Of a stretch of DNA of 13,358 bases, positions 2,335 through 13,358 are shown one piece after another. A program made the translations under genes and the position numbers. How positions within the stretch are numbered: the stretch's first letter is position 1; each line of letters starts with the position of its first letter. This DNA is from a virus. The notes beneath the pieces were generated by a model. The model did not search any database and had not been told where the DNA came from. It saw nothing but the letters and a program-made list of their open reading frames with translations. The stretch is from positions 1 through 13,358 of the IMG/VR virus record IMGVR_UViG_3300045988_053599; one strand, 5' to 3'.

Positions 2335-3024
2335 TTAATATACCAGCAGGCAAAAGTTTGCCTGAATATCTGCAACGATCTTATTCACCGCGTTTTTGGC
2401 GGCCAGGGTCAGCTCCTTGGCAATCAGGTCTTGCGGGTCTTTGCCCGCCCGGCCCTTTTCGGTCACGGTGTCTTTGTACCTATCCTGCGCTTTGGTGGTC
2501 CCGTCATTGGTAGTTGTCTGGTCGTCGGTGGTTGTGTCGGTGCCGGTGCTGGTGATCTTGTTACCGGTGCCCAGGGTGGTGGTACTCTTTTCGGCGGGCA
2601 CAAAGGTCCCGCTGTCAAAACCCGTCACATCCCTGGTAGTGTTGTCGCTGCCATTATTCTGGCCGATGGTGGTAAGGTCAGGGGTGCGGGTGGTTTTGCC
2701 TGCCACCACGTTTTTGCTGCTGTTGGTGCCGCTGTTGGTCCCCTTGTGCTCCACGGTCCTGGTGCGATCATCGGAGGCCAACACGTCATAGTCAAGGCCC
2801 AGGGCTTTTGCATACCGGGTCCAGCTGGGCAGCATGGTTTCCGAAAACACGCCCAAGGCCCTTTGCATGGTGGGGCCATCGGTATAAAGTACCTCCAGCT
2901 CCAACGTATCAAATAGCAGCTGGTTACATACCGTCTCTTTTGATACGCTGTCAGGGACTTTAAGGTCATCGAATAGTGGGGGGTATCCTGCTAGTAACCC
3001 GTTAAAGCTTAGTGTTGCGTGCAT
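2335..3024 (-). CDS. Putative lower collar / tail tube protein (phi29 gp11 position)
   Basis: ATG at 3024 preceded by GGAGG, overlapping the portal 3' end by 23 nt. It lies immediately downstream of the portal as in phi29. The central Thr/Gly/Asp/Asn-rich region is compatible with extended beta-hairpins. No sequence motif was verified. Confidence 0.45.
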   Translation of the reverse strand: MHATLSFNGLLAGYPPLFDDLKVPDSVSKETVCNQLLFDTLELEVLYTDGPTMQRALGVFSETMLPSWTRYAKALGLDYDVLASDDRTRTVEHKGTNSGTNSSKNVVAGKTTRTPDLTTIGQNNGSDNTTRDVTGFDSGTFVPAEKSTTTLGTGNKITSTGTDTTTDDQTTTNDGTTKAQDRYKDTVTEKGRAGKDPQDLIAKELTLAAKNAVNKIVADIQANFCLLVY

Positions 3025-3943
3025 TGTTGGTCACCTCCTGCATGCCGGTGTCGGGTGGGAATCTCCAATCAACCCACAGCTGCGATCTGTCAATCCCAAA
3101 AAGCTTGTGGACCCGCTCGCAGCTGCGCTGCAAGCTGTCCAGCCACAGCGACGCTTTTGCAGCCGTCTCCACGTTGTTGGAATTGACCTCATCGGTCAGC
3201 ATGCGCTCTTTTTTGCTTGTGTTGGTGTTGGGGATACCGACTTCGGTATCAAAAAGCGCCTTGATGGTTTTAAGGGCCGTCAACAGCTCGTTGGTGATGA
3301 AATTGCCTTTGAGGTCCGCTGAAAAGTACATCCACGGGGATTGACCGGAGGCCCCGGTCTTAGACGCTTTAAGCAAAGAGGAATCGACAAAAACAGCTGG
3401 GTCCCCCTGCATGATCTGATCAAACATTTTCTTAAAAGATTCCGCGCCCGCCTTGTTGCCTGCCGCGAACACATATGCCAAACGGCTGTTGATTAAATTG
3501 CTCTGGATGGTCTGGGCGGCAAGGGCCATTAGGTCCCCATAATATGCCACAATATCCACCATGCCCCTGTAATCAGGCTGCAGGTTGATGATCTCGCACT
3601 GCCTGCCAATCTGCAGATACGGGGAACCCTTGATAAAGGGATTTGCCACGATGGAGTGTGTGGGATTGTAAAAGATATTGATGCCGGTCAGTCCCATGCG
3701 ATCATATACCAGGCCGTACCGGTCGGTATCAAATACTGTTACACCGCCGGACCCGAATACCAGGTATTGCAAGCGGTTACTGGGCCAGGTTTCGGGCAGT
3801 GTCCACCGGACCATAGACACGGCTTCCAAAAACAGGTATTTTCGGAAATAGTATGACAGGTTGTTGCCCTTGGTGTGCATGACAGACGGTGTTACCGGTG
3901 ATACATGGGCATTGATCTGATCATAGCTATAGGGTGCACTCAC
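3002..3943 (-). CDS. Portal (connector / upper collar) protein, phi29 gp10-like
   Basis: 313 aa against 309 aa for phi29 gp10. The C-terminal block KKERMLTDEVNSN matches phi29 KKERMVTDEVSSN as recalled. A GTG start at 3943 overlaps the upstream stop (GTGA). An alternative ATG lies at 3880. Confidence 0.85.
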   Translation of the reverse strand: MSAPYSYDQINAHVSPVTPSVMHTKGNNLSYYFRKYLFLEAVSMVRWTLPETWPSNRLQYLVFGSGGVTVFDTDRYGLVYDRMGLTGINIFYNPTHSIVANPFIKGSPYLQIGRQCEIINLQPDYRGMVDIVAYYGDLMALAAQTIQSNLINSRLAYVFAAGNKAGAESFKKMFDQIMQGDPAVFVDSSLLKASKTGASGQSPWMYFSADLKGNFITNELLTALKTIKALFDTEVGIPNTNTSKKERMLTDEVNSNNVETAAKASLWLDSLQRSCERVHKLFGIDRSQLWVDWRFPPDTGMQEVTNNARNTKL

Positions 3944-4506: not shown

Positions 4507-5919
4507 CTACTCAAGGAAAAATCCATTGCGCAAAAAGCTTTTGACGCTGTCGATCTCGGCAGCCGTCGCCGGTAAAGCAAGATCCGGGTCGTCGACCATG
4601 ATAAAGCCCGGAATCGTGGACAGCTGCACACGCTGGCACAGTGGCCGACCATGGTCCTCGTTGTTGTCGTCCACGATCTCATAAAATGCACCGGTCAAAT
4701 ATGGGGTGATACCGTATTTTGCGACGCTGGCCCCTCCGCCTTTGGACTGGCTGGTGACGGTGGTTTGCTGGGCACCGGAGGCTATGCCGTTGGCAATGTC
4801 GCCGTTTCCGAAAAAGGACGCAATGCCGCCAGCCACAGCACCCACCGCCGTTTGAATCAGGCCGCCAACGCTGGCCAGCTCATTGACGTTAGTCGCGATC
4901 TGCGCCAGCTGCACCGGCACTGCCACGTTGCTGGACGTGGAAAAGACGATGGTACTAAAATCTTGCTTAAATGACACATCCAGGACCGCATCGCCGGTGC
5001 GGTAGTCAACCGTCAAACGGCAGTGTAATGTGCTTTGCCGCACAAACAAGTTAGCATTTAACTTGATCTCGCCAAAGGGCGGGCAGTACAGCGTGTACTC
5101 GGAATATGGTGCCCCGTCTGTGTACGCGCCTCTTGTGTTGAGCTGCGGGTGGTGTGGGGTCGCAATACTAAATGTAAATACCTGTTTGTCGTTGCTGTTT
5201 TGTATAACATAAGCGTTCCCGACGTTCTGCAGTTTCCACCAACCGACGGGGATGTCGGTAATGGGGGTGCCGATACCGGCGTTGCCGCACGGAATCCAAA
5301 ACGCTTTGGAGATATACTGGATGGGATTAAACAGCGCTTTAGTAAGGTTGCTGCTGATCTCCTCCGAACTAATATTAAGATAGTCGGTATTCTGCAGGAG
5401 GGCGGCCATGAGCTTTTGAAATGAGGTACCGCTCATTGCCAGATAAATGGCCCCGCCAAAAGACACATATCCAGGGGCGTTGACCACCACAACAAAAAAA
5501 CCAATATTGCCCTCAGGGTCATCGGAAAACGGTGTGGTACTTGCCTTTACGGTCTTGAGGGTCAGGGGTGCTTTGGTCGGGTACAAACTATCTGTAATAT
5601 TGCCGTCATACTTGGCGGACGATCTCACAACGTACTCTGTAGCGCTGCTGATCTCGTCCCGGTAACTTGCAAGGGTGTCGACGGTCAAGGATGCAATCCA
5701 GCGCGCGTCCGAATATGTCCAGTTTTTAATCCAGTAGTACCGGCCAAAAATGGGGATATTGCAATAATTGTACCCGGTGGGGTTGCTCTCTGTAGCAATC
5801 TTAATTTCAGGGTCGATGATGGTACACGGGGATTTTAGGTTGATCTCAAACGTTCGCCCGCCGGTGGGCAGCTTGGTACTGTTTGAGCGCTTGGTGATCT
5901 GGTAAAATACTGCTTGCAT
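4507..5919 (-). CDS. Tail knob / distal tube protein, phi29 gp9-like
   Basis: ATG at 5919 preceded by AAGGAGGTG. Its position follows the capsid gene as gene 9 does in phi29. The N-terminal domain pattern (GRYYWIKNWTY...LTVDTLASY) resembles the gp9 N-terminus (NKWFYAFVTELEF...EIDVLQTW, as recalled). Residues 348-400 form a Gly/Ala-rich hydrophobic segment. Confidence 0.65.
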   Translation of the reverse strand: MQAVFYQITKRSNSTKLPTGGRTFEINLKSPCTIIDPEIKIATESNPTGYNYCNIPIFGRYYWIKNWTYSDARWIASLTVDTLASYRDEISSATEYVVRSSAKYDGNITDSLYPTKAPLTLKTVKASTTPFSDDPEGNIGFFVVVVNAPGYVSFGGAIYLAMSGTSFQKLMAALLQNTDYLNISSEEISSNLTKALFNPIQYISKAFWIPCGNAGIGTPITDIPVGWWKLQNVGNAYVIQNSNDKQVFTFSIATPHHPQLNTRGAYTDGAPYSEYTLYCPPFGEIKLNANLFVRQSTLHCRLTVDYRTGDAVLDVSFKQDFSTIVFSTSSNVAVPVQLAQIATNVNELASVGGLIQTAVGAVAGGIASFFGNGDIANGIASGAQQTTVTSQSKGGGASVAKYGITPYLTGAFYEIVDDNNEDHGRPLCQRVQLSTIPGFIMVDDPDLALPATAAEIDSVKSFLRNGFFLE

Positions 5920-5936
5920 GTTGCATACACCTCCTT

Positions 5937-5971
5937 ATAAAATAACCGGCGGGAGCAAATGCCCCGCCGGT
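5937..5971 (-). terminator. Rho-independent terminator after the capsid gene
   Basis: Minus strand reads ACCGGCGGG-gcatttgct-CCCGCCGGT, a 9-bp GC stem with a 9-nt loop, followed by TATTTTAT. It starts 6 nt after the capsid stop codon. Confidence 0.7.
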
Positions 5972-5976
5972 GCCGG

Positions 5977-7251
5977 TCAGGACTTAGAGGGGTCTGCGTC
6001 CTTGTGCATGGTGGTTTTGAGGGTGGAGGCTTTGGCCGCGCGGCCCGTGCTGGGCGCGGTCACGTCGCCCGCCGTCATCAAAAACAGGACGGCGTTTTCG
6101 GTAAAATCGTCGTACCAGCTCCAGCCGTAATGATACCAGAAATTGGTATACAGGCCGCGCGCGTTCATCGGCGTGGGGACGACGCGGGACAGCTTCGGAG
6201 TGTAGCCGATTGCGTCCCAGTCAAGCAGACAGCCAAACACGTTGGTCAGCTGCACGGCTGCATTTTTGGTTGCCACGCCGGCGGTACTGGTAACAACAGG
6301 GGTTGCGGCGATCGTTTCGCGGTCGTCGATGTCCTGCCAAAACGTGACCTGTTCCGCGTCACGGTACCGGAGCATGTCATCGTGGAATACCTCCGGAATA
6401 ACGCGGGCATCAATCTGGCTCTGAGTGCCGCTGTACAGATACAGGTGCTGGCGATCATACGGGGTATGCCGCATAATGTTGTAAGTCTTGCTGCCGATCG
6501 TCCAGTTCTGGTGCCAGTTGATCGTGCGTTCTTTCATCAAGCGGGAAATGTCGTTGATACGCCCGTATGCAAACTTAGCAAATCCGGGGAAATTGGCCTC
6601 TTTGTACACGTCGGCAACCGTGAGCTTGGTGCCCTGCTGGGCGTTGTACTCATCCAGCAGGTAAATAACGCTTTTGGGGCTGGTGACAGTCATGCCGGTC
6701 AGGTGGTTGGCCATCAGGTTGTTGGCCAGGTTGCGCCGGTCGGCCTCGATCTGGTTGGACAGATGGAGGACAAACGAGGACCAAAACTGTGCCAGCTCTT
6801 CGGGCCCCTTAAATGCCGCCTGCATTTGAGTGTCAGCCTGGGTGTACACGCGGCTATAGTTGGTCTGACCATAATAGTTGGTCTGCAGGACCTGGGGCTT
6901 GTGTACCTCGTACATGTCGACGCTATCGCCATCTTCCAGGGCCCAGGCTTTATCCGTCACGGGGTCAGAATCGCAAAAATTGATCTTGCGAACGTGGTTG
7001 GTCCAGTCGTCGCCGGTAACCTGCAGGCGCTTCATCGGCGCGTCATAGGGCCGGACCGCAAAAATAGTGCGGCCCAGCACCTGGCTGATTGCCTTGGTGT
7101 AGTTGTCGGGGCCGGTCAGCAAAGTGGCCTGCGCGACAGATACAAAACTTGAGGTGTCCACGATGGGAGACGTGGGCTCCTGGCCAGTTGCCATCTTGTT
7201 GATCTCGGTCAAAATTGCGGCAATGTCCGCAAAACTCATACCAAGCGGCAT
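5977..7251 (-). CDS. Major capsid protein, phi29 gp8-like (HK97 fold family)
   Basis: ATG at 7251 preceded by GGAGG. The C-terminal block ARGLYTNFWYHYGWSWYDDFTENAVLFL aligns with phi29 gp8 [28 protein letters not shown] as recalled. The 424-aa protein has no C-terminal Ig-like extension. Confidence 0.85.
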   Translation of the reverse strand: MPLGMSFADIAAILTEINKMATGQEPTSPIVDTSSFVSVAQATLLTGPDNYTKAISQVLGRTIFAVRPYDAPMKRLQVTGDDWTNHVRKINFCDSDPVTDKAWALEDGDSVDMYEVHKPQVLQTNYYGQTNYSRVYTQADTQMQAAFKGPEELAQFWSSFVLHLSNQIEADRRNLANNLMANHLTGMTVTSPKSVIYLLDEYNAQQGTKLTVADVYKEANFPGFAKFAYGRINDISRLMKERTINWHQNWTIGSKTYNIMRHTPYDRQHLYLYSGTQSQIDARVIPEVFHDDMLRYRDAEQVTFWQDIDDRETIAATPVVTSTAGVATKNAAVQLTNVFGCLLDWDAIGYTPKLSRVVPTPMNARGLYTNFWYHYGWSWYDDFTENAVLFLMTAGDVTAPSTGRAAKASTLKTTMHKDADPSKS

Positions 7252-7861: not shown

Positions 7862-8017
7862 TCACCCTTTTTTAATGTCGTCCAAGGCCACACGCATTTC
7901 AGTAATAGCTGCCGTGTTTTCTTTGACGACCGTGTTGCACTGATACCACATCAGCAAAAATGCCGCGATCGGAAAACCCACGTTAGAAATAGCCTGTAAA
8001 ACAGTGTTAGCATCCAT
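7862..8017 (-). CDS. YvrJ-like small membrane protein (51 aa); holin candidate
   Basis: ATG at 8017 with GGAGG 8 nt upstream. It has one hydrophobic helix, and the motif SNVGFPIAAFLLMWY resembles the N(V/Y)GFPI core of the YvrJ family (PF12841) as I recall it. It is the first gene after the non-coding gap. The 83-aa track ORF is an upstream GTG extension through structured RNA. Confidence 0.45.
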   Translation of the reverse strand: MDANTVLQAISNVGFPIAAFLLMWYQCNTVVKENTAAITEMRVALDDIKKG

Positions 8018-8040
8018 TTTGTGCACCTCCGTAAAAATAT

Positions 8041-8122
8041 GAATAGAATAAAATCCCCGGTTCTTGCGCTGGCTGACGCCTGCCCGCCCCTTCTGGGGGC
8101 TGCCTTTGGGCACCGGGGATTA
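8041..8122 (-). ncRNA. Structured RNA element (9-bp closing stem around three small hairpins) ending in a U-tract; candidate small RNA, leader attenuator or terminator
   Basis: On the minus strand, AAUCCCCGG (8121..8113) pairs with CCGGGGAUU (8060..8052). The stem encloses UGCC-CAAA-GGCA, GCCCC-CAGAA-GGGGC and GCAGGC-GUCA-GCCAGC, and is followed by UUUAUUCUAUUC. It starts about 6 nt after the -10 box. Confidence 0.45.
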
Positions 8123-8127
8123 TCTTT

Positions 8128-8155
8128 ATTATATTCGATTGTTGGATAAAGTCAA
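8128..8155 (-). promoter_or_regulatory. Near-consensus sigma-A/sigma-70 type promoter
   Basis: Minus strand reads TTGACT (8155..8150), a 16-nt spacer, then TATAAT (8133..8128). The -35 box overlaps the ATPase TGA stop codon. Confidence 0.6.
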
Positions 8156-9216
8156 GTGGCGCTGCAGTATTCCCGAAAAAATATTTCATCCGAATACCGC
8201 TCAAACTCAATTTGCCGCTGCAGATATGCGGGCCAGATATACCCATAAGCGGCCCGGAATCGTTTCCGCTCATAGTCGCCGGAGCCGTACATTGGCATTT
8301 CGCCGGAGCGGTGCCGACATACATAATATATGGGCTTGCTTTTATGCTCATAGATACAGCACCGACCGATCTGCACAAGTGGGTAATATTCGCGCAAGGG
8401 ACGGGATACCACCAGGCTTTTTTCCTCGGCGCTGTACTGGTTTTCAATGGCCGACCGGTAAAAGTCGGTCCCGCTCATGGACCGGTACAGGGCCGTATTT
8501 GCTTTTTCTTTGGCGATGGGGCTGTCCACCAAGTCAATCAGCAATATGCCCTTGTCTTTTAACAGCTTCACGCGCTCTTTTTTGCCGATCATCCGTTCCA
8601 CGGTGTCGGTAATATCCCATTGCATATAGTAGGGGTTTGCCATGCCCACGGCATTCGACATGCACAACAGCGTGATGGGTTTTTGTCCTTGCAATTCTCG
8701 GTTACGGTTGACCGTTTCGTATATATTCGCAAGGCCCACGCCCTCACCGCGCCGGTAATAGTCGGATTCTTCTTTTTGGTATTCATCCAGGATTATAATG
8801 TCAGTATTGGGGCTCGAAAAGCCACGGGTGCGGGCCATGGTGACAACATTGCCCAGCACACCCGACATCTGCGCCGGTCGAATAGGGACCCCGGTGTCAG
8901 TATAGGCCCCGGCGTTGCCCACCTCGTACATGCCAGCAATTTTGGACATTTTGAAAGGTGCATAATGTGTTTGCAGGTCATTATTTAAGGGGGACCACGG
9001 CCACATGAGCGGCGACGAACATATCAACTCTGCCTGCTGTGGCGTGCGACGCAAGTACAAAAACTCTTCCTCTTTTTCGTGCACGTGCTTGAGGGCTCCA
9101 TACGTTTTGCCGGTGCCGCGCCCGCCCCAGATAAAAATGATGGGGGCACCGGTGGATAGAATGCCGTCATCCTCTGAAAAGTTGGGCCAGCCCTCGTCTG
9201 TATAAAGCTTAATCAT
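8152..9216 (-). CDS. DNA packaging (encapsidation) ATPase, phi29 gp16-like
   Basis: Walker A GGRGTGKT and Walker B DIIILDE. The protein is 354 aa against 332 aa for gp16. The ATG at 9216 has GGAGG 7 nt upstream and overlaps the polymerase stop (TGATG). The track start at 9219 is TTG. Confidence 0.85.
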   Translation of the reverse strand: MIKLYTDEGWPNFSEDDGILSTGAPIIFIWGGRGTGKTYGALKHVHEKEEEFLYLRRTPQQAELICSSPLMWPWSPLNNDLQTHYAPFKMSKIAGMYEVGNAGAYTDTGVPIRPAQMSGVLGNVVTMARTRGFSSPNTDIIILDEYQKEESDYYRRGEGVGLANIYETVNRNRELQGQKPITLLCMSNAVGMANPYYMQWDITDTVERMIGKKERVKLLKDKGILLIDLVDSPIAKEKANTALYRSMSGTDFYRSAIENQYSAEEKSLVVSRPLREYYPLVQIGRCCIYEHKSKPIYYVCRHRSGEMPMYGSGDYERKRFRAAYGYIWPAYLQRQIEFERYSDEIFFREYCSAT

Positions 9217-11210
9217 CAAACTACCTCCATGATCTTGTACCCCAGTATCCTGGCGTACTCGTCGGTAATGCCCAGAGTGTATGTATTATCACAAATACAT
9301 AGGTTGCGGGTTATGTGGACCTTGTGGCCGTCAACTACAAAATCTGGGACCTTTGGCCGATCATTATAAATGACCTGGTTGCCAGCAGCCAGGCAAAACG
9401 TAAAGCCTGGCTTAAAGGCATCAAACCCACCCCAGAGGGCCAGTTCAAGGCCGCCTTTGCGCTTGCTAACTCCAGCTATTGTGGTTGTAATCCTGCCGCC
9501 TTTGGTGTAGGTGGTCGCGTATTTTTTCGCACCCCATGTCATAAACTCGGCGTAACTGCGTTCCTGCTCGTACACGCCCATATAGTGCACATGCCCTTTG
9601 GGGTCTGTAGCACAGGCACCATTATCTTTTGCAAGCTGTTTCACGGCCTTGTTAAATTCCGTCAAGTCAATGTCACCCATGTACTTGACGCTGTCAGTAT
9701 CACAGTACACGCCATTTTTGCCTGCGGCCCATTGTGCGATCTTGAGGCGCTTGCGCGTGTGGGCCGTGGTCCAAACTCCCCATTGATACGGCAAAAACAG
9801 GTGTGGGCAGTGATCGTTATAGCTGCCCTCCGGGTCGTCGGTGCACTCACTCCACAGGTTGTCGGGGTCGTCCTCGTCAAAAAGCGTATCCAGCTGCAGG
9901 GGGTCTTGTGCTGTCATGCCGTAATAACTATTAAGGTCGCCTTTGGATTTGACATAGTACAACTCTTGACCGGCCACGCCTTTTAAAGATGTCTTGCCGG
10001 TGTAGCTCTCTTTGACGCAATCTGTCAAGGGCTTTGGCAGCTTGCCATAGTCGGACGTGTACAAGTCCAGCACATTAAGAGCATCCCAGTCGTACTCCTT
10101 GGCGATAATCCTAAAATCAATATCGGTGATAGTAATTTCAAAATGATCGGCAGACAGCAAGCGGCCGTTGTCGTTTACATACCCCTCGCAGTGTCGCACC
10201 TTTGCAAGGGGAATGTAGGGGAATCCCCACCACTTAAACCGCTGACGTAATCCTTTGATCTGCAAGCGCATCAAGCATGCCTTGCTGTGCCGCATACATT
10301 GCATGAGACGCTGCACCGTGGCCGGTTCCTGCCGAAATGGTGTCATGGGGAAATAGCACTCGCATTGCACTGCAGGATAAGCGCTTGACATATCGACAGA
10401 CCCAACGTTTTCCAGATGGAGACCGACATAATAACGATTGGCATGTGTGTCACCGCCCCGGAATGCCTCGCGCAACATCTGGTACAGTTCCCAGGACGGC
10501 AGCAGGCGCTTAACTCGGTTAATGCCCCATTTGTACATCGCCTGCCGCGCCATGCGTCGGACGTATCCGGTTCGCGTCAACGGCAAAGTGTACAGATCAT
10601 CTCCATCGCGCTCCATCTCAATCAGCAGGCACTCCACAATGCACCGCACGTCATTGATACAATACGCCAATTCTGTGGATGACAGCGGGGTCCAGGGATA
10701 CCGGACTTTGGAGTAGTCAAGGGCCCCTGTTAATTTTGCATGAGGCGCTCCCAGCTGTTTGCCCCATGCGTCAAGGGACAGATTGCTGTGTCGCATACTG
10801 CACCGGTATTCTATGGCGCGGTTGTCACATTTCAAAACTCGCCGGGGTTTGCTGGCAAACACTTCACCGGGGCCAAAAGTCATGACCCCGGAAAGGTACT
10901 GAAACTCATGAGCAAGGTTATGCACATACATGCAGAGATACCAGGTACCTTGTGGCCCACTATTGGCCCGCAAGTAGTCGCTGATCGTGTCGGTAAAATG
11001 TAGCCATTCGTCCCACGTCCTGCCGATGATCGTAACATCCAAACCAAGCTGACACTGCCAGATATACATGATAGTATGGGGGTTACCGTCAACGTCAGTA
11101 CAAACTCGGCTGGTTTCAATGTCAAACGCACACGGCATATTAACGTACAGCCGCTTTTTGTTCGTTTTGCGCTTTTTGCCCTTGGTGTGCTTGCAATCCA
11201 AGTGCTCCAT
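9216..11210 (-). CDS. Protein-primed family B DNA polymerase
   Basis: Motifs seen are Exo I FDIET, Exo II-like HNLAHEF, Exo III YCINDVRCI, motif A DMSSAYP, motif B KGDLNSYYG, motif C YCDTDS and KKY. The start is uncertain. ATG at 11210 is the first ATG after the upstream stop at 11233. The track start at 11486 is TTG and overlaps the upstream gene by 254 nt. ATG at 11138 is also possible. Confidence 0.93.
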   Translation of the reverse strand: MEHLDCKHTKGKKRKTNKKRLYVNMPCAFDIETSRVCTDVDGNPHTIMYIWQCQLGLDVTIIGRTWDEWLHFTDTISDYLRANSGPQGTWYLCMYVHNLAHEFQYLSGVMTFGPGEVFASKPRRVLKCDNRAIEYRCSMRHSNLSLDAWGKQLGAPHAKLTGALDYSKVRYPWTPLSSTELAYCINDVRCIVECLLIEMERDGDDLYTLPLTRTGYVRRMARQAMYKWGINRVKRLLPSWELYQMLREAFRGGDTHANRYYVGLHLENVGSVDMSSAYPAVQCECYFPMTPFRQEPATVQRLMQCMRHSKACLMRLQIKGLRQRFKWWGFPYIPLAKVRHCEGYVNDNGRLLSADHFEITITDIDFRIIAKEYDWDALNVLDLYTSDYGKLPKPLTDCVKESYTGKTSLKGVAGQELYYVKSKGDLNSYYGMTAQDPLQLDTLFDEDDPDNLWSECTDDPEGSYNDHCPHLFLPYQWGVWTTAHTRKRLKIAQWAAGKNGVYCDTDSVKYMGDIDLTEFNKAVKQLAKDNGACATDPKGHVHYMGVYEQERSYAEFMTWGAKKYATTYTKGGRITTTIAGVSKRKGGLELALWGGFDAFKPGFTFCLAAGNQVIYNDRPKVPDFVVDGHKVHITRNLCICDNTYTLGITDEYARILGYKIMEVV

Positions 11211-11232
11211 GAGCCACGGCACGGGGTTGTAA

Positions 11233-11832
11233 TTACAAGCCTCCACCAAAACCTCCGCGCAAGTCGGCGGAGCTGCTGCCGTCGCTATAGTCCCAGTCTT
11301 TGCCATAACTGACCTCACCTTGCTGCCATTTGACAAAATCGTCAATGCTGACATTATAACCGCCTTTTTCGCGCCAGTACATGACGGGCTGATCTGACGG
11401 ATAATAGTACACACCGGAGGCCTTGACGATCTCCCACCATTCGGACAGGGCCGTGTACTGATCTTCGGGGACCTCCGACACGTCAATGCCGCCGACTTTC
11501 ATTTTTTCGGTAAATTCCTCACGGGCACCGCCCACCGTGGACCCTTTGGAGCGGACAAACCGCGCAACATCGGCAAGGGCTTGTTCAAGCGCTTTGCGAT
11601 CTCCGCGCATTGCTTTGATGGTAGGGAAGCCTCCGGCAAATTCTTTATAAATGTCGCTCGTGCTGCTGATGGGGTCCTTTGACAGTCGCTTGATACGTTT
11701 CTGGGCAATGTCACGCAATCGCGTGTATTCCTTGCGCATCTCGCGGTCAGGCCATGATTCTAGGGCATACGGGGTATATAGTTCCGCGTCATATTTAAGT
11801 GTTGCGCTTGCTTTGGCTGCACCTACGGCCAT
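11233..11832 (-). CDS. Putative terminal protein (replication primer)
   Basis: Directly upstream of the polymerase, as phi29 gene 3 is. The basic N-terminal block RKEYTRLRDIAQKRIKRLSK resembles phi29 TP KAEYARLVKNTKAKIARTKKK. The C-terminal DWDYSDG resembles the phi29 priming-serine context EFDSEG. Both phi29 sequences are recalled from memory. ATG at 11832; the track start at 11841 is GTG. Confidence 0.55.
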   Translation of the reverse strand: MAVGAAKASATLKYDAELYTPYALESWPDREMRKEYTRLRDIAQKRIKRLSKDPISSTSDIYKEFAGGFPTIKAMRGDRKALEQALADVARFVRSKGSTVGGAREEFTEKMKVGGIDVSEVPEDQYTALSEWWEIVKASGVYYYPSDQPVMYWREKGGYNVSIDDFVKWQQGEVSYGKDWDYSDGSSSADLRGGFGGGL

Positions 11833-12051: not shown

Positions 12052-12084
12052 AACAAAAAGGCCACAGCACTTAGTGCTGTGGCC
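12052..12084 (-). terminator. Strong rho-independent terminator inside the early gene block
   Basis: Perfect 11-bp stem, ggccacagcac (12060..12070) with gtgctgtggcc (12074..12084), and a 3-nt loop. On the minus strand it is followed by TTTTTGTT. It starts 10 nt after the stop of the 145-aa gene. Confidence 0.8.
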
Positions 12085-12094
12085 ACCGGTCAAA

Positions 12095-12532
12095 TTAAAC
12101 CAGGTACAGGGACAGGACCTGACCCTTCTTGGTGCTGATCAGCACGGGCTTGATCTTCACAGGTTCGGCCCAGGTGTCCGGGGTGCCCAGCAGCGTAAAC
12201 ATGCGTTTGAGCGACTGGTAAACACCGACGGACACACACGCGTACGACTGGCCGTCCTCCGTGATGAGGACAATACGCGGGGCGATCACCTTGTCCTCCG
12301 GTGCATCCTCCTTGCTGACCTCCACGCATTCCACAGACACATGCACCAAGGACAGTACCTCGTTGACGTGCTCTTTCAGCTTGTTGACGGGGTTGCTTGT
12401 CGCGTTATAAAACGCAACTGCTGCAGAGCGGTCAGTAAGATTCATGTCGGTGTACCCAAGACCGGTATTCATCACATCAGCCACCGTCATAGCGGTACCA
12501 GTGTTTTCGGATTTGGTCATTGCTTCAGACAT
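12095..12532 (-). CDS. Putative ssDNA-binding protein, phi29 p5-like
   Basis: ATG at 12532 preceded by AAAGGAG. The C-terminal half resembles phi29 p5 as recalled: EDGQSYACVS versus ADGSLYSAIS, and VKIKPVLISTKKGQVLSLYLV versus FKVKVVQGTSSKGNVFFSLQLSL. Its position upstream of the TP and polymerase genes matches phi29 gene 5. Confidence 0.45.
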   Translation of the reverse strand: MSEAMTKSENTGTAMTVADVMNTGLGYTDMNLTDRSAAVAFYNATSNPVNKLKEHVNEVLSLVHVSVECVEVSKEDAPEDKVIAPRIVLITEDGQSYACVSVGVYQSLKRMFTLLGTPDTWAEPVKIKPVLISTKKGQVLSLYLV

Positions 12533-12570
12533 AATACAAAACTCCTTTCATTTGGCCCTGTCATCATCAG

Positions 12571-12610
12571 TACCGGGCGGGCGGTCCCGGTAGACGGCCC
12601 GGAGGGCCGT
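12571..12610 (-). other. Two adjacent GC-rich hairpins in the 5' leader of the SSB-like gene
   Basis: acggccc/gggccgt (12594..12610) forms a 7-bp stem with a 3-nt loop. taccggg/cccggta (12571..12592) forms a 7-bp stem with an 8-nt loop. They are separated by 1 nt and no U-tract follows. Confidence 0.5.
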
Positions 12611-12615
12611 TTCGA

Positions 12616-12882
12616 CTAATGCTGAAAAATTTGTGCATATTTTCTGTACATCTTTTCGGCCCCATCTCGTACAAGGGTAGCACCCCGACGCATTAAACAT
12701 ACCTCTGCACTGTTGCCTTTAAGCAATTCAACTTGTTCAGCGCAATGACTAAGAGCTTGCCGGTACCCAGACAGCCACGAGCGATCATTAGCAACTCTAA
12801 TAGCGTTCTCGGAATCCTCATACTCGCAGCACGTCACATGACCATCCGGGTGGATTTCAACGATAAACTTGCGCATTTCCAT
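12616..12882 (-). CDS. Hypothetical early protein (88 aa)
   Basis: ATG at 12882 preceded by GGAGA, 4 nt after the upstream stop. No motif recognised. Confidence 0.55.
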   Translation of the reverse strand: MEMRKFIVEIHPDGHVTCCEYEDSENAIRVANDRSWLSGYRQALSHCAEQVELLKGNSAEVCLMRRGATLVRDGAEKMYRKYAQIFQH

Positions 12883-13238: not shown

Positions 13239-13358
13239 TCATACCCACTCCCCTACCCGGCAGGGGTGTGGGTACTGTTATATGCGGGCACTAGCAGATT
13301 GCACAAAAATATATGCGATTGGGGGAAAAATTTTGTGCAAAATGCTATTACGTGTCCC
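13239..13358. repeat. Right inverted terminal repeat (ITR), 120 bp
   Basis: Exact reverse complement of 1..120. Confidence 0.97.

Follow-up and report, generated by a model that had tools for sequence, protein, structure and literature searches.

Results

The gap downstream of the packaging ATPase gene

We analyzed the 13,358-bp IMG/VR virus record IMGVR_UViG_3300045988_053599 over its full length (hereafter the window), a complete linear phi29-like phage genome with every gene on the minus strand, and focused on the gap that separates the gene for the phi29 gp16-type DNA encapsidation ATPase from the first late gene. At 134 nt (8018–8151), this is the biggest internal non-coding gap of the window, as a preliminary description of the same DNA had noted; it carries a promoter and a structured RNA of ~70 nt that, as argued below, is probably a compact counterpart of the prohead (packaging) RNA (pRNA) of phage phi29. 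All parts of the gap described here lie on the minus strand.

The promoter, TTGACT-N16-TATAAT, scores 11/12 and is, again as first described, the top sigma-70-type match in the window. Its −35 hexamer TTGACT (8150–8155) overlaps the ATPase stop codon TGA (8152–8154), and the TTGAC is kept in 81 close relatives (i.e., 80 loci at 91–100% ATPase identity retrieved by an IMG/VR scan with the ATPase, plus MT836263). A 16-nt spacer separates it from the −10 hexamer TATAAT (8128–8133), and the predicted start at ~8121 coincides with the first base of the closing helix of the RNA, 6 nt beyond the −10 box (5–8 nt in most family members).

The RNA core extends from the 5′ to the 3′ strand of this closing helix, helix A (8052–8121), and is supported both by a covariance model (R1, see below) and by sequence identity. 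Helix A is the 9-bp GC-rich stem of the preliminary description: AAUCCCCGG (8113–8121) pairs with CCGGGGAUU (8052–8060), with compensatory changes in 9/9 pairs. Inside it, UGCCC (8108–8112) pairs with GGGCA (8081–8085) to form helix C, a pairing previously offered as an alternative that, according to the comparative data, is a real helix, invariant within the close clade and covarying between clades. Between helices C and E, the 5′ strand carries a bulge, AAAGGCA (the CE bulge, or CE loop; 8101–8107), whose GGC (8102–8104) is complementary to the loop of hairpin D and whose second position is free (A, C, G, or U) among close relatives. Hairpin E (8086–8100; GCCCC, loop CAGAA at 8091–8095, GGGGC) shows compensatory changes, and the helix of hairpin D (8066–8079; GCGU, loop CAGCCA at 8070–8075 with GCC at 8071–8073, GCGC) covaries. 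A purine-rich junction strand, AAGAA (8061–8065; 4–5 nt in most members), leads from hairpin D back to helix A.

Downstream of helix A is a U-rich tail, UUUAUUCUAUUCAUAUUUUU (8032–8051), which is poorly conserved (identity 0.72) and may be either the U-tract of a terminator with helix A as its stem or a processing spacer. In agreement with the preliminary description, the tract UUUAUUCUAUUC follows the closing stem and is itself followed by the conserved ribosome binding site (RBS) GGAGGUG (8024–8030) and ATG (8015–8017) of the first late gene (together 8015–8030), with no space for a promoter between the RNA and the RBS. A mechanical list of open reading frames (ORFs) runs this gene across the RNA to a GTG at 8113 (7862–8113, minus strand); because the RBS and the ATG at 8017 are conserved, we assign it a product of 51 amino acids.

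When the whole window was scanned against Rfam with cmscan under permissive filters (E ≤ 10), no family matched 8018–8155, pRNA included. ARAGORN detected no transfer RNA (tRNA) and no transfer-messenger RNA in the window, and a tRNA-like cloverleaf was rejected on this basis. A terminator scan does not call the site of the RNA, because the "loop" of the stem is 52 nt long.

Conservation and covariation

The RNA is present in 81/81 close relatives, where its core (per-column pairwise identity 0.954) is the most conserved stretch locally; identity is 0.83–0.88 in the ATPase gene, 0.67–0.80 in the promoter spacer and −10 region, and 0.72–0.74 in the tail and the downstream gene, and it drops sharply where the closing helix begins and where it ends. 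In the alignment of close relatives, the spacer drifts between retained −35 and −10 boxes. Within this clade the helices already change in a compensatory manner: in helix A, CCCCGG/CCGGGG is replaced by CCCAGG/CCUGGG, CCUCGG/CCGAGG, or CUCAGG/CCUGAG, and in helix E, GCCCC/GGGGC is replaced by GCUCC/GGAGC or GCCUC/GAGGC.

The minimum-free-energy fold of the window sequence (−40.7 kcal/mol) is stable relative to shuffled sequences (z = −2.8, with 2/200 shuffles as stable) and contains three hairpins inside the stem. The preliminary description had proposed these hairpins, and in the minimum-free-energy fold they are indeed found; as the conserved structure, however, the three-hairpin fold was rejected because distant relatives cannot form its first hairpin yet all form helix C, and the conserved interior consists of two arms. 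As judged by comparative analysis, the three-way junction is the sole fold common to the family, despite its energy cost in the window, and all four of its helices (A, C, E, and D) covary in relatives.

In distant relatives (ATPase 26–40% identical), the ATPase stop codon is mostly followed by a TTGACA-N17-TATAAT-type promoter and then, mostly in the same place, by an RNA of unrelated sequence but the same architecture. The shared design comprises the closing helix A; a first arm with a short helix C, a 7–8-nt bulge on the 5′ side (the CE loop), and a 4–5-bp hairpin E; and a second arm, hairpin D, from which 4–5 mainly purine nucleotides lead to the return strand of helix A. Among 48 diverse representatives, the E loop C-N-G-A-A is retained in 46 and a 7-nt 5′ bulge with 0 nt opposite in 37. 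Junction nucleotides are not conserved between clades, the E loop being the exception, and helices C and D, at ~4–5 bp each, have lengths that do not co-vary (r = −0.02). The first 10 nt after helix A contain a mean of 5.2 T across the family, compared with ~2.4 expected, and several clades have no U-tract.

A descriptor search that ignored loop complementarity (170 sequences, 960 kb per strand, score cutoff ≥ 50) returned 124 matches on the ATPase strand versus 3 on the opposite strand, of which two are a tandem-repeat artifact and one is a genuine element. The repeat in question, GGTGCT at ~3496–3637 of genome L122, is the source of the sole high-scoring false positives of this search. The descriptor parser and the alignment of the 48 representatives (A3) are fitted to the structure, and we therefore added a sequence-only RNAalifold run, an Infernal alignment, and cross-pairing and permutation controls. 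From a MAFFT alignment of 37 diverse members made on sequence alone, RNAalifold recovered helices A and E and some of helix D, with compensatory changes in 16/16 predicted pairs. The covariance model R1, built from the sequence-only alignment, matches the window at 8051–8122 (66.2 bits, E = 2.6e-17) and finds a single copy in each of 54 of the 68 sources, every one at the expected site, with no further match in the 342 kb scanned on both strands. Double changes are present in 21/21 pairs of the Infernal alignment, in which 91.6% of cells are paired (53.8% when shuffled) and the covariation score is 0.93 (0.22 when shuffled, 0.09–0.20 with slid partners); the structure-fitted alignment A3 gives the same picture over 36 pairs.

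Complementarity of the CE and D loops

The preliminary description had cautioned that the element has no complementary loop pair. This turned out to be wrong, because every lineage has a CE bulge complementary to its D loop. In the window, GGC in the CE bulge (8104–8102) matches GCC in the D loop (8073–8071), and across the family the complementarity is carried by 30 distinct word pairs (e.g., GUGC:GCAC, UGCAC:GUGCA, GGUCA:UGACC, AACCA:UGGUU, GAAAC:GUUUC, UCGCC:GGCGA, and AAAAGGAA:UUCCUUUU). Between the sister genomes L129 and L133, both words have changed together, from UCUGA:UCAGA to UCCAA:UUGGA. In a first test, the CE and D loops of the same RNA formed ≥ 3 bp in 93%, ≥ 4 bp in 48%, and ≥ 5 bp in 29% of cases, compared with 26%, 5%, and 1.3%, respectively, for loops cross-paired between RNAs. 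In a permutation test with one representative per word pair, the mean was 4.23 bp for own loops and 2.31 ± 0.15 bp with the D loops permuted, and the own mean was attained in 0/20,000 permutations; it should be noted that the cross-pairing and permutation controls received the identical best-match optimization. This complementarity of CE and D loops is the hallmark that defines phi29 pRNA.

Comparison with phi29 pRNA

In domain I of pRNA, helix A is formed from both ends of the molecule and enters a three-way junction of helices A, C, and D, with the CE bulge loop and then hairpin E on one side and hairpin D completing the structure (PMC5066667). Intermolecular Watson-Crick pairing between CE and D loops, with a minimum of two G-C pairs, closes a ring on the prohead; the pRNA loops bind the prohead and helix A extends outward to the ATPase; phi29 packaging needs a helix A of ~25 bp including a CCA bulge; and pRNAs share ~12% sequence identity and a conserved secondary structure (PMC5066667).

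The phage that encodes the RNA described here likewise has a gp10 connector and an ATPase of the gp16 type and presumably replicates by protein priming. The RNA has a sigma-70-type promoter of its own, with the start predicted here at the first base of helix A; its elements come in the same order (helix A, helix C, 5′-side CE bulge, hairpin E, hairpin D); and its CE:D complementarity, 3–8 bp, covaries amid divergence of the primary sequence. Sizes are similar as well (CE bulge 7–8 nt, helix E 4–5 bp, D loop 4–8 nt). It differs from phi29 pRNA in that helix A has 9 bp and lacks the CCA bulge, helix C has 4–5 bp rather than ~9, the single-stranded nucleotides are found chiefly between D and A instead of between C and D, and hairpin E carries a conserved C-N-G-A-A pentaloop; in addition, the Rfam model does not detect it. 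Known pRNAs are 120–174 nt long, and the preliminary description was right that the present element is shorter; the core is ~70 nt, and domain II is absent. With these likenesses and differences, we file the RNA as a probable variant of the pRNA kind, outside the curated Rfam family.

Position of the RNA gene and other phi29-like phages

The RNA gene moves between lineages. In MT835998, a terminator toward which the late genes converge closes the ATPase gene. The RNA opens the late operon ~8 kb away, on the opposite strand and behind a promoter of its own. Because the RNA is so far from the ATPase gene in this genome, what is conserved is linkage with the beginning of the late genes rather than with the ATPase gene, and synteny with the ATPase, which the preliminary description had used as an argument, carries little weight. 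Members of the compact subfamily almost always have the RNA as the 5′ end of their late transcript. The gene that follows the RNA is holin-like, scaffold-like, or endolysin-like depending on the clade. In L148-type gut phages (L148 and L083 represent a long variant), the RNA is followed by a terminator and a new promoter, and in L136 by a canonical terminator placed ahead of the RBS, without a new promoter.

Candidate pRNA-like RNAs are also seen at 4608–4730 of Enterococcus phage vB_EfaP_2/Chl-5 (L175), 4672–4770 of Clostridium phage CI461P2 (L170), ~12540–12635 of Eggerthella phage LE1-1 (L171), and 5864–5925 of Amedibacillus phage AD70P3 (L089). These four RNAs are intergenic, unannotated three-way junctions from cultured non-Bacillus phi29-like phages, and all are missed by the Rfam pRNA model.

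AD70P3 (OP172639), a cultured relative, carries the compact RNA, on the complementary strand at ~6304–6365 of that record. The pRNA-like three-way junctions of CI461P2 and LE1-1 are found 5′ of the ATPase gene and have CE:D pairs of their own (ACCA:UGGU and GGGGC:GCCCC, respectively), and the Enterococcus phage, a member of the Salasmaviridae, has a version with a long helix A, its own promoter and terminator, and then a separate late promoter. For Streptococcus phage Cp-1, a pRNA was proposed in 1996 (Martin et al.) that, according to a passage in PMC6266182, is undetectable by a Bacillus-based model; the computed fold of the Cp-1 intergenic region is a long hairpin without a clear three-way junction. 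The putative Cp-1 RNA and those of the Enterococcus phage, CI461P2, and LE1-1 resemble the RNA of the window in that they belong to non-Bacillus phi29-like phages, are placed between replication and late/packaging genes in the orientation of the late genes, and are missed by Bacillus-based models, and, Cp-1 aside, also in having a three-way junction with CE:D complementarity. The Enterococcus, CI461P2, and LE1-1 RNAs differ from it in length (~95–120 nt), in their long, bulged A helices, and in their E loops. R1 gave no matches in AD70P3, CI461P2, LE1-1, Cp-1, or the Enterococcus phage; the model is too sequence-bound, and the RNAs of the cultured phages were therefore judged by folding and by eye.

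A perfect 16-bp palindrome, TGTTTCACNTGAAACA, was observed at 17 loci, by promoters around the RNA gene or the late operon, in several unrelated phi29-like clades that range from gut phages to the Enterococcus phage; examples are 2728–2743 and 2762–2777 in L148, 2518–2533 in L136, and 4784–4799 and 1252–1267 in the Enterococcus phage (L175). It looks like an operator for a shared regulator and does not occur in the window. The operator palindrome TGTTTCACGTGAAACA, which other clades carry close to the RNA, is missing from the window.

Genome context

The window is bounded by perfect 120-nt terminal inverted repeats (1–120 and 13239–13358), and we therefore regard it as the full length of a linear genome that is presumably protein-primed; a 17-nt inverted repeat (12–28/51–67) lies inside each terminal repeat. 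The genome has the phi29-type packaging and replication module, with a gp16 ATPase, a gp10 connector, a phi29-type capsid protein, a type-B DNA polymerase, and the terminal inverted repeats. On the minus strand, Pfam and PHROG matches identify the type-B DNA polymerase (9216–11486), the phi29-type major capsid protein (5977–7251), and the gp10-type connector (3002–3943), and a GDSL-hydrolase tail protein is encoded there as well. The ATPase (8152–9219, minus strand) matches Pfam Podovirus_Gp16 (E = 2.7e-14) and a PHROG terminase (E = 7.6e-26), has phi29 gp16 as its best solved relative (PDB: 7JQQ, 5HD9), and is presumably the protein partner of the RNA. The first late gene (7862–8017, minus strand), which lies outside the RNA, encodes a 51-residue holin-like membrane protein (phrog_4898 holin, E = 5.7e-06), a homologue of which is also found 3′ of the RNA in MT835998.

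The closest GenBank record is MT836263, a human-gut contig without annotation (80% DNA identity), and cultured Guelinviridae are among the more distant relatives. Two ~13-kb contigs, L176 (CALDWI010000036.1) and L177 (CAAGKM010000040.1), have a 91% identical ATPase and the same RNA; they were binned with metagenome-assembled genomes of Collinsella sp. and Prevotella sp., and because these bins conflict, the host assignment is unreliable.

Elsewhere in the window, 12552–12617 on the minus strand matches the type II hammerhead ribozyme over its full length (RF02276; 45.9 bits versus a gathering score of 37; E = 6.9e-07) and lies in an 83-nt gap between the early ORFs 12616–12882 and 12095–12532; being on the coding strand, the ribozyme would cleave the early transcript. 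Homology to MT836263 stops at 12617, and the ribozyme was not found at gathering score in MT836263 and seven other related genomes. A strong terminator-like hairpin at 5945–5971 (minus strand; ACCGGCGGGG...CCCGCCGGT, then UAUUUUAU) is located in the 57-nt gap directly 3′ of the major capsid gene and may be an internal attenuator of the late operon. The early region has a further strong hairpin at 12060–12084.

Discussion

Taken together, the comparative sequence data make it probable that the gap encodes a compact prohead RNA, which in this lineage of gut phages would be the counterpart of domain I of phi29 pRNA. Of the two readings put forward in the preliminary description, a discrete pRNA-like RNA and a terminator or attenuator, it is the former that is best supported: the helices are arranged as in pRNA domain I, the CE and D loops covary, and the genome has a phi29-type packaging module. 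Host RNA polymerase would initiate at ~8121 from the conserved promoter, and the first ~70 nt would fold into a three-way junction in which helix A joins the 5′ and 3′ ends, the C/E arm bears the 7-nt CE bulge and the C-N-G-A-A pentaloop, and hairpin D ends in a 6-nt loop. By analogy with phi29, we infer that the RNA would form a ring, bind the prohead, and dock the ATPase. On the portal vertex of the empty prohead, five or six copies would assemble, and the CE loop GGC of one copy would pair with the D loop GCC of the next to give a closed ring; the invariant E loop would touch the capsid or the connector, and helix A would point outward as the docking site for the gp16-type ATPase, the pump that drives the protein-primed DNA into the head. 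Either partial termination at helix A and the U-rich tail or nuclease trimming of the late-operon leader would generate the 3′ end, and the late genes would be expressed from read-through transcripts.

A number of observations weigh against a pRNA. The Rfam pRNA model, which the preliminary description had suggested as a check, gives no match even at E ≤ 10; however, Cp-1 and the Enterococcus, CI461P2, and LE1-1 phages are also missed, and the model is therefore narrow. Helix A has 9 bp and no bulge, and the junction strands measure 0–1 / 0–3 / 4–5 nt here, compared with 1 / 3 / 0 nt in phi29 pRNA. For the window sequence, the pRNA-like fold (−35.4 kcal/mol) lies 5 kcal/mol above the minimum-free-energy fold (−40.3 kcal/mol). 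The interval from the RNA to the late genes has no room for a promoter, so that the RNA is physically also a late-operon leader. The CE:D contact could form within one molecule, which is conceivable because helices C and D are similar in length (4–5 bp). Finally, the N terminus of the connector has no obvious basic RKR-type motif, although we consider this uninformative.

Several of these points would fit an RNA that acts in cis, i.e., a pseudoknotted three-way junction with an intramolecular CE:D contact that stays on the mRNA as a late-operon leader and controls the late genes, whether by attenuation (helix A and the U-tract), by modifying RNA polymerase in a put-like manner, or by offering a binding site through which a phage protein acts on late transcription, translation, or mRNA stability. 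The RNA is always oriented toward the late genes and in the compact subfamily directly precedes the first of them, even in MT835998 with its ATPase gene elsewhere; the interval between RNA and RBS is too short for a promoter; the tail is on average U-rich; L136 has a canonical terminator between RNA and RBS without a new promoter; and the similar lengths of helices C and D make an intramolecular loop-loop contact geometrically conceivable. Yet the lengths of C and D do not co-vary, the downstream gene changes from clade to clade (holin-like, scaffold-like, or endolysin-like), and the U-tract is missing in several clades, while the RNAs of the L148-type phages and the Enterococcus phage have their own terminator followed by a separate promoter and those of CI461P2 and LE1-1 precede the ATPase gene rather than structural genes. 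The junction nucleotides, moreover, lack the conservation seen in ligand-binding leaders, the E loop aside, and the architecture matches pRNA in phages that have the pRNA-dependent type of ATPase. On balance, we think a cis-acting leader unlikely. A riboswitch-like aptamer or a small ribozyme in the leader is, of all the explanations considered here, the one we would credit least. Purine-riboswitch-type leaders are three-way junctions with intramolecular loop-loop contacts, and the present RNA shares with them a closing helix at the mRNA 5′ end, two arms of similar length, and complementary loop nucleotides, so that the topologies resemble each other; the genome also has a type II hammerhead at 12552–12617. 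But here one of the "loops" is a bulge within an arm, the junction nucleotides are unconserved between clades, there is no expression platform or alternative pairing that could serve as one, no Rfam family matches at E ≤ 10, and what is conserved is an apical pentaloop, the kind of element that typically makes a protein or tertiary contact.

The GC-rich 9-bp stem, followed directly by UUUAUUCUAUUC and placed between two operons, looks much like an intrinsic terminator, and the locus might be no more than a boundary between early and late genes, in which a promoter and an elaborate terminator insulate the polymerase-ATPase operon from the late operon and the RNA itself has no function. This is highly improbable, if marginally less so than an aptamer or ribozyme: a terminator requires only a hairpin, but the "loop" here is a 52-nt covarying two-arm structure that is more constrained than the stem or the U-tract, with a nearly invariant E loop and covarying C, E, and D helices and CE:D words, whereas conservation is lowest in the tail, which several clades lack, and a simple terminator scan does not call the site. 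The terminator or attenuator reading of the preliminary description may hold in part, as a second role. In the window genome, which has a U-rich tail and no intervening promoter, helix A and the U-tract may additionally attenuate late-gene transcription; as the function of the family it does not hold, because several lineages have no U-tract after helix A, and it does not explain the covarying loop pair and the invariant E loop. We conclude from the comparative data, the shifting site of the RNA gene among lineages included, that the primary function probably resides in the RNA product.

A more speculative proposal would join the two roles. A minimal pRNA of ~70 nt would be the start of the late-operon transcript, and helix A would serve both as the spoke that docks the ATPase and as the stem of a leaky terminator, so that a single promoter would set the ratio of motor RNA to late mRNA. 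We put this forward tentatively and regard it as possible rather than probable.

RNAs of the pRNA kind are already known; to judge by the sources searched, the compact class has yet to be described, as have its distribution and position. A full-text literature search gave no report that connects gut phages or Guelinviridae with pRNA. No family in Rfam 15 matches, and those GenBank records that carry annotation list no RNA feature at the site. pRNA is the sole RNA known as an essential part of a viral DNA-packaging motor, a role that is unresolved (PMC5066667), and according to a 2024 review it is, by present knowledge, unique to phi29 and related Bacillus phages (PMC11476376). If the present RNA is a pRNA, a far smaller natural version exists in well over a hundred gut phage genomes, and an annotation gap would be filled, the RNA being unannotated in all of them. 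The indispensable parts would then be the three-way junction, the CE:D contact, and the E loop, and not the long helix A. pRNA is widely used as a building block in RNA nanotechnology, and the family would supply dozens of natural orthogonal kissing-loop pairs. The interface between ATPase and RNA could be compared across deep divergence, and whether all gp16-type motors need an RNA could be tested in cultured phages, e.g., Amedibacillus phage AD70P3. Should the tentative minimal-pRNA proposal also hold, most of the long helix A of phi29 would be dispensable for motor function, and, together with the longer variants of the Clostridium, Eggerthella, and Enterococcus phages, it would mean that RNA-dependent packaging is both ancestral and general across the entire phi29-like lineage, including the Guelinviridae-like gut phages.

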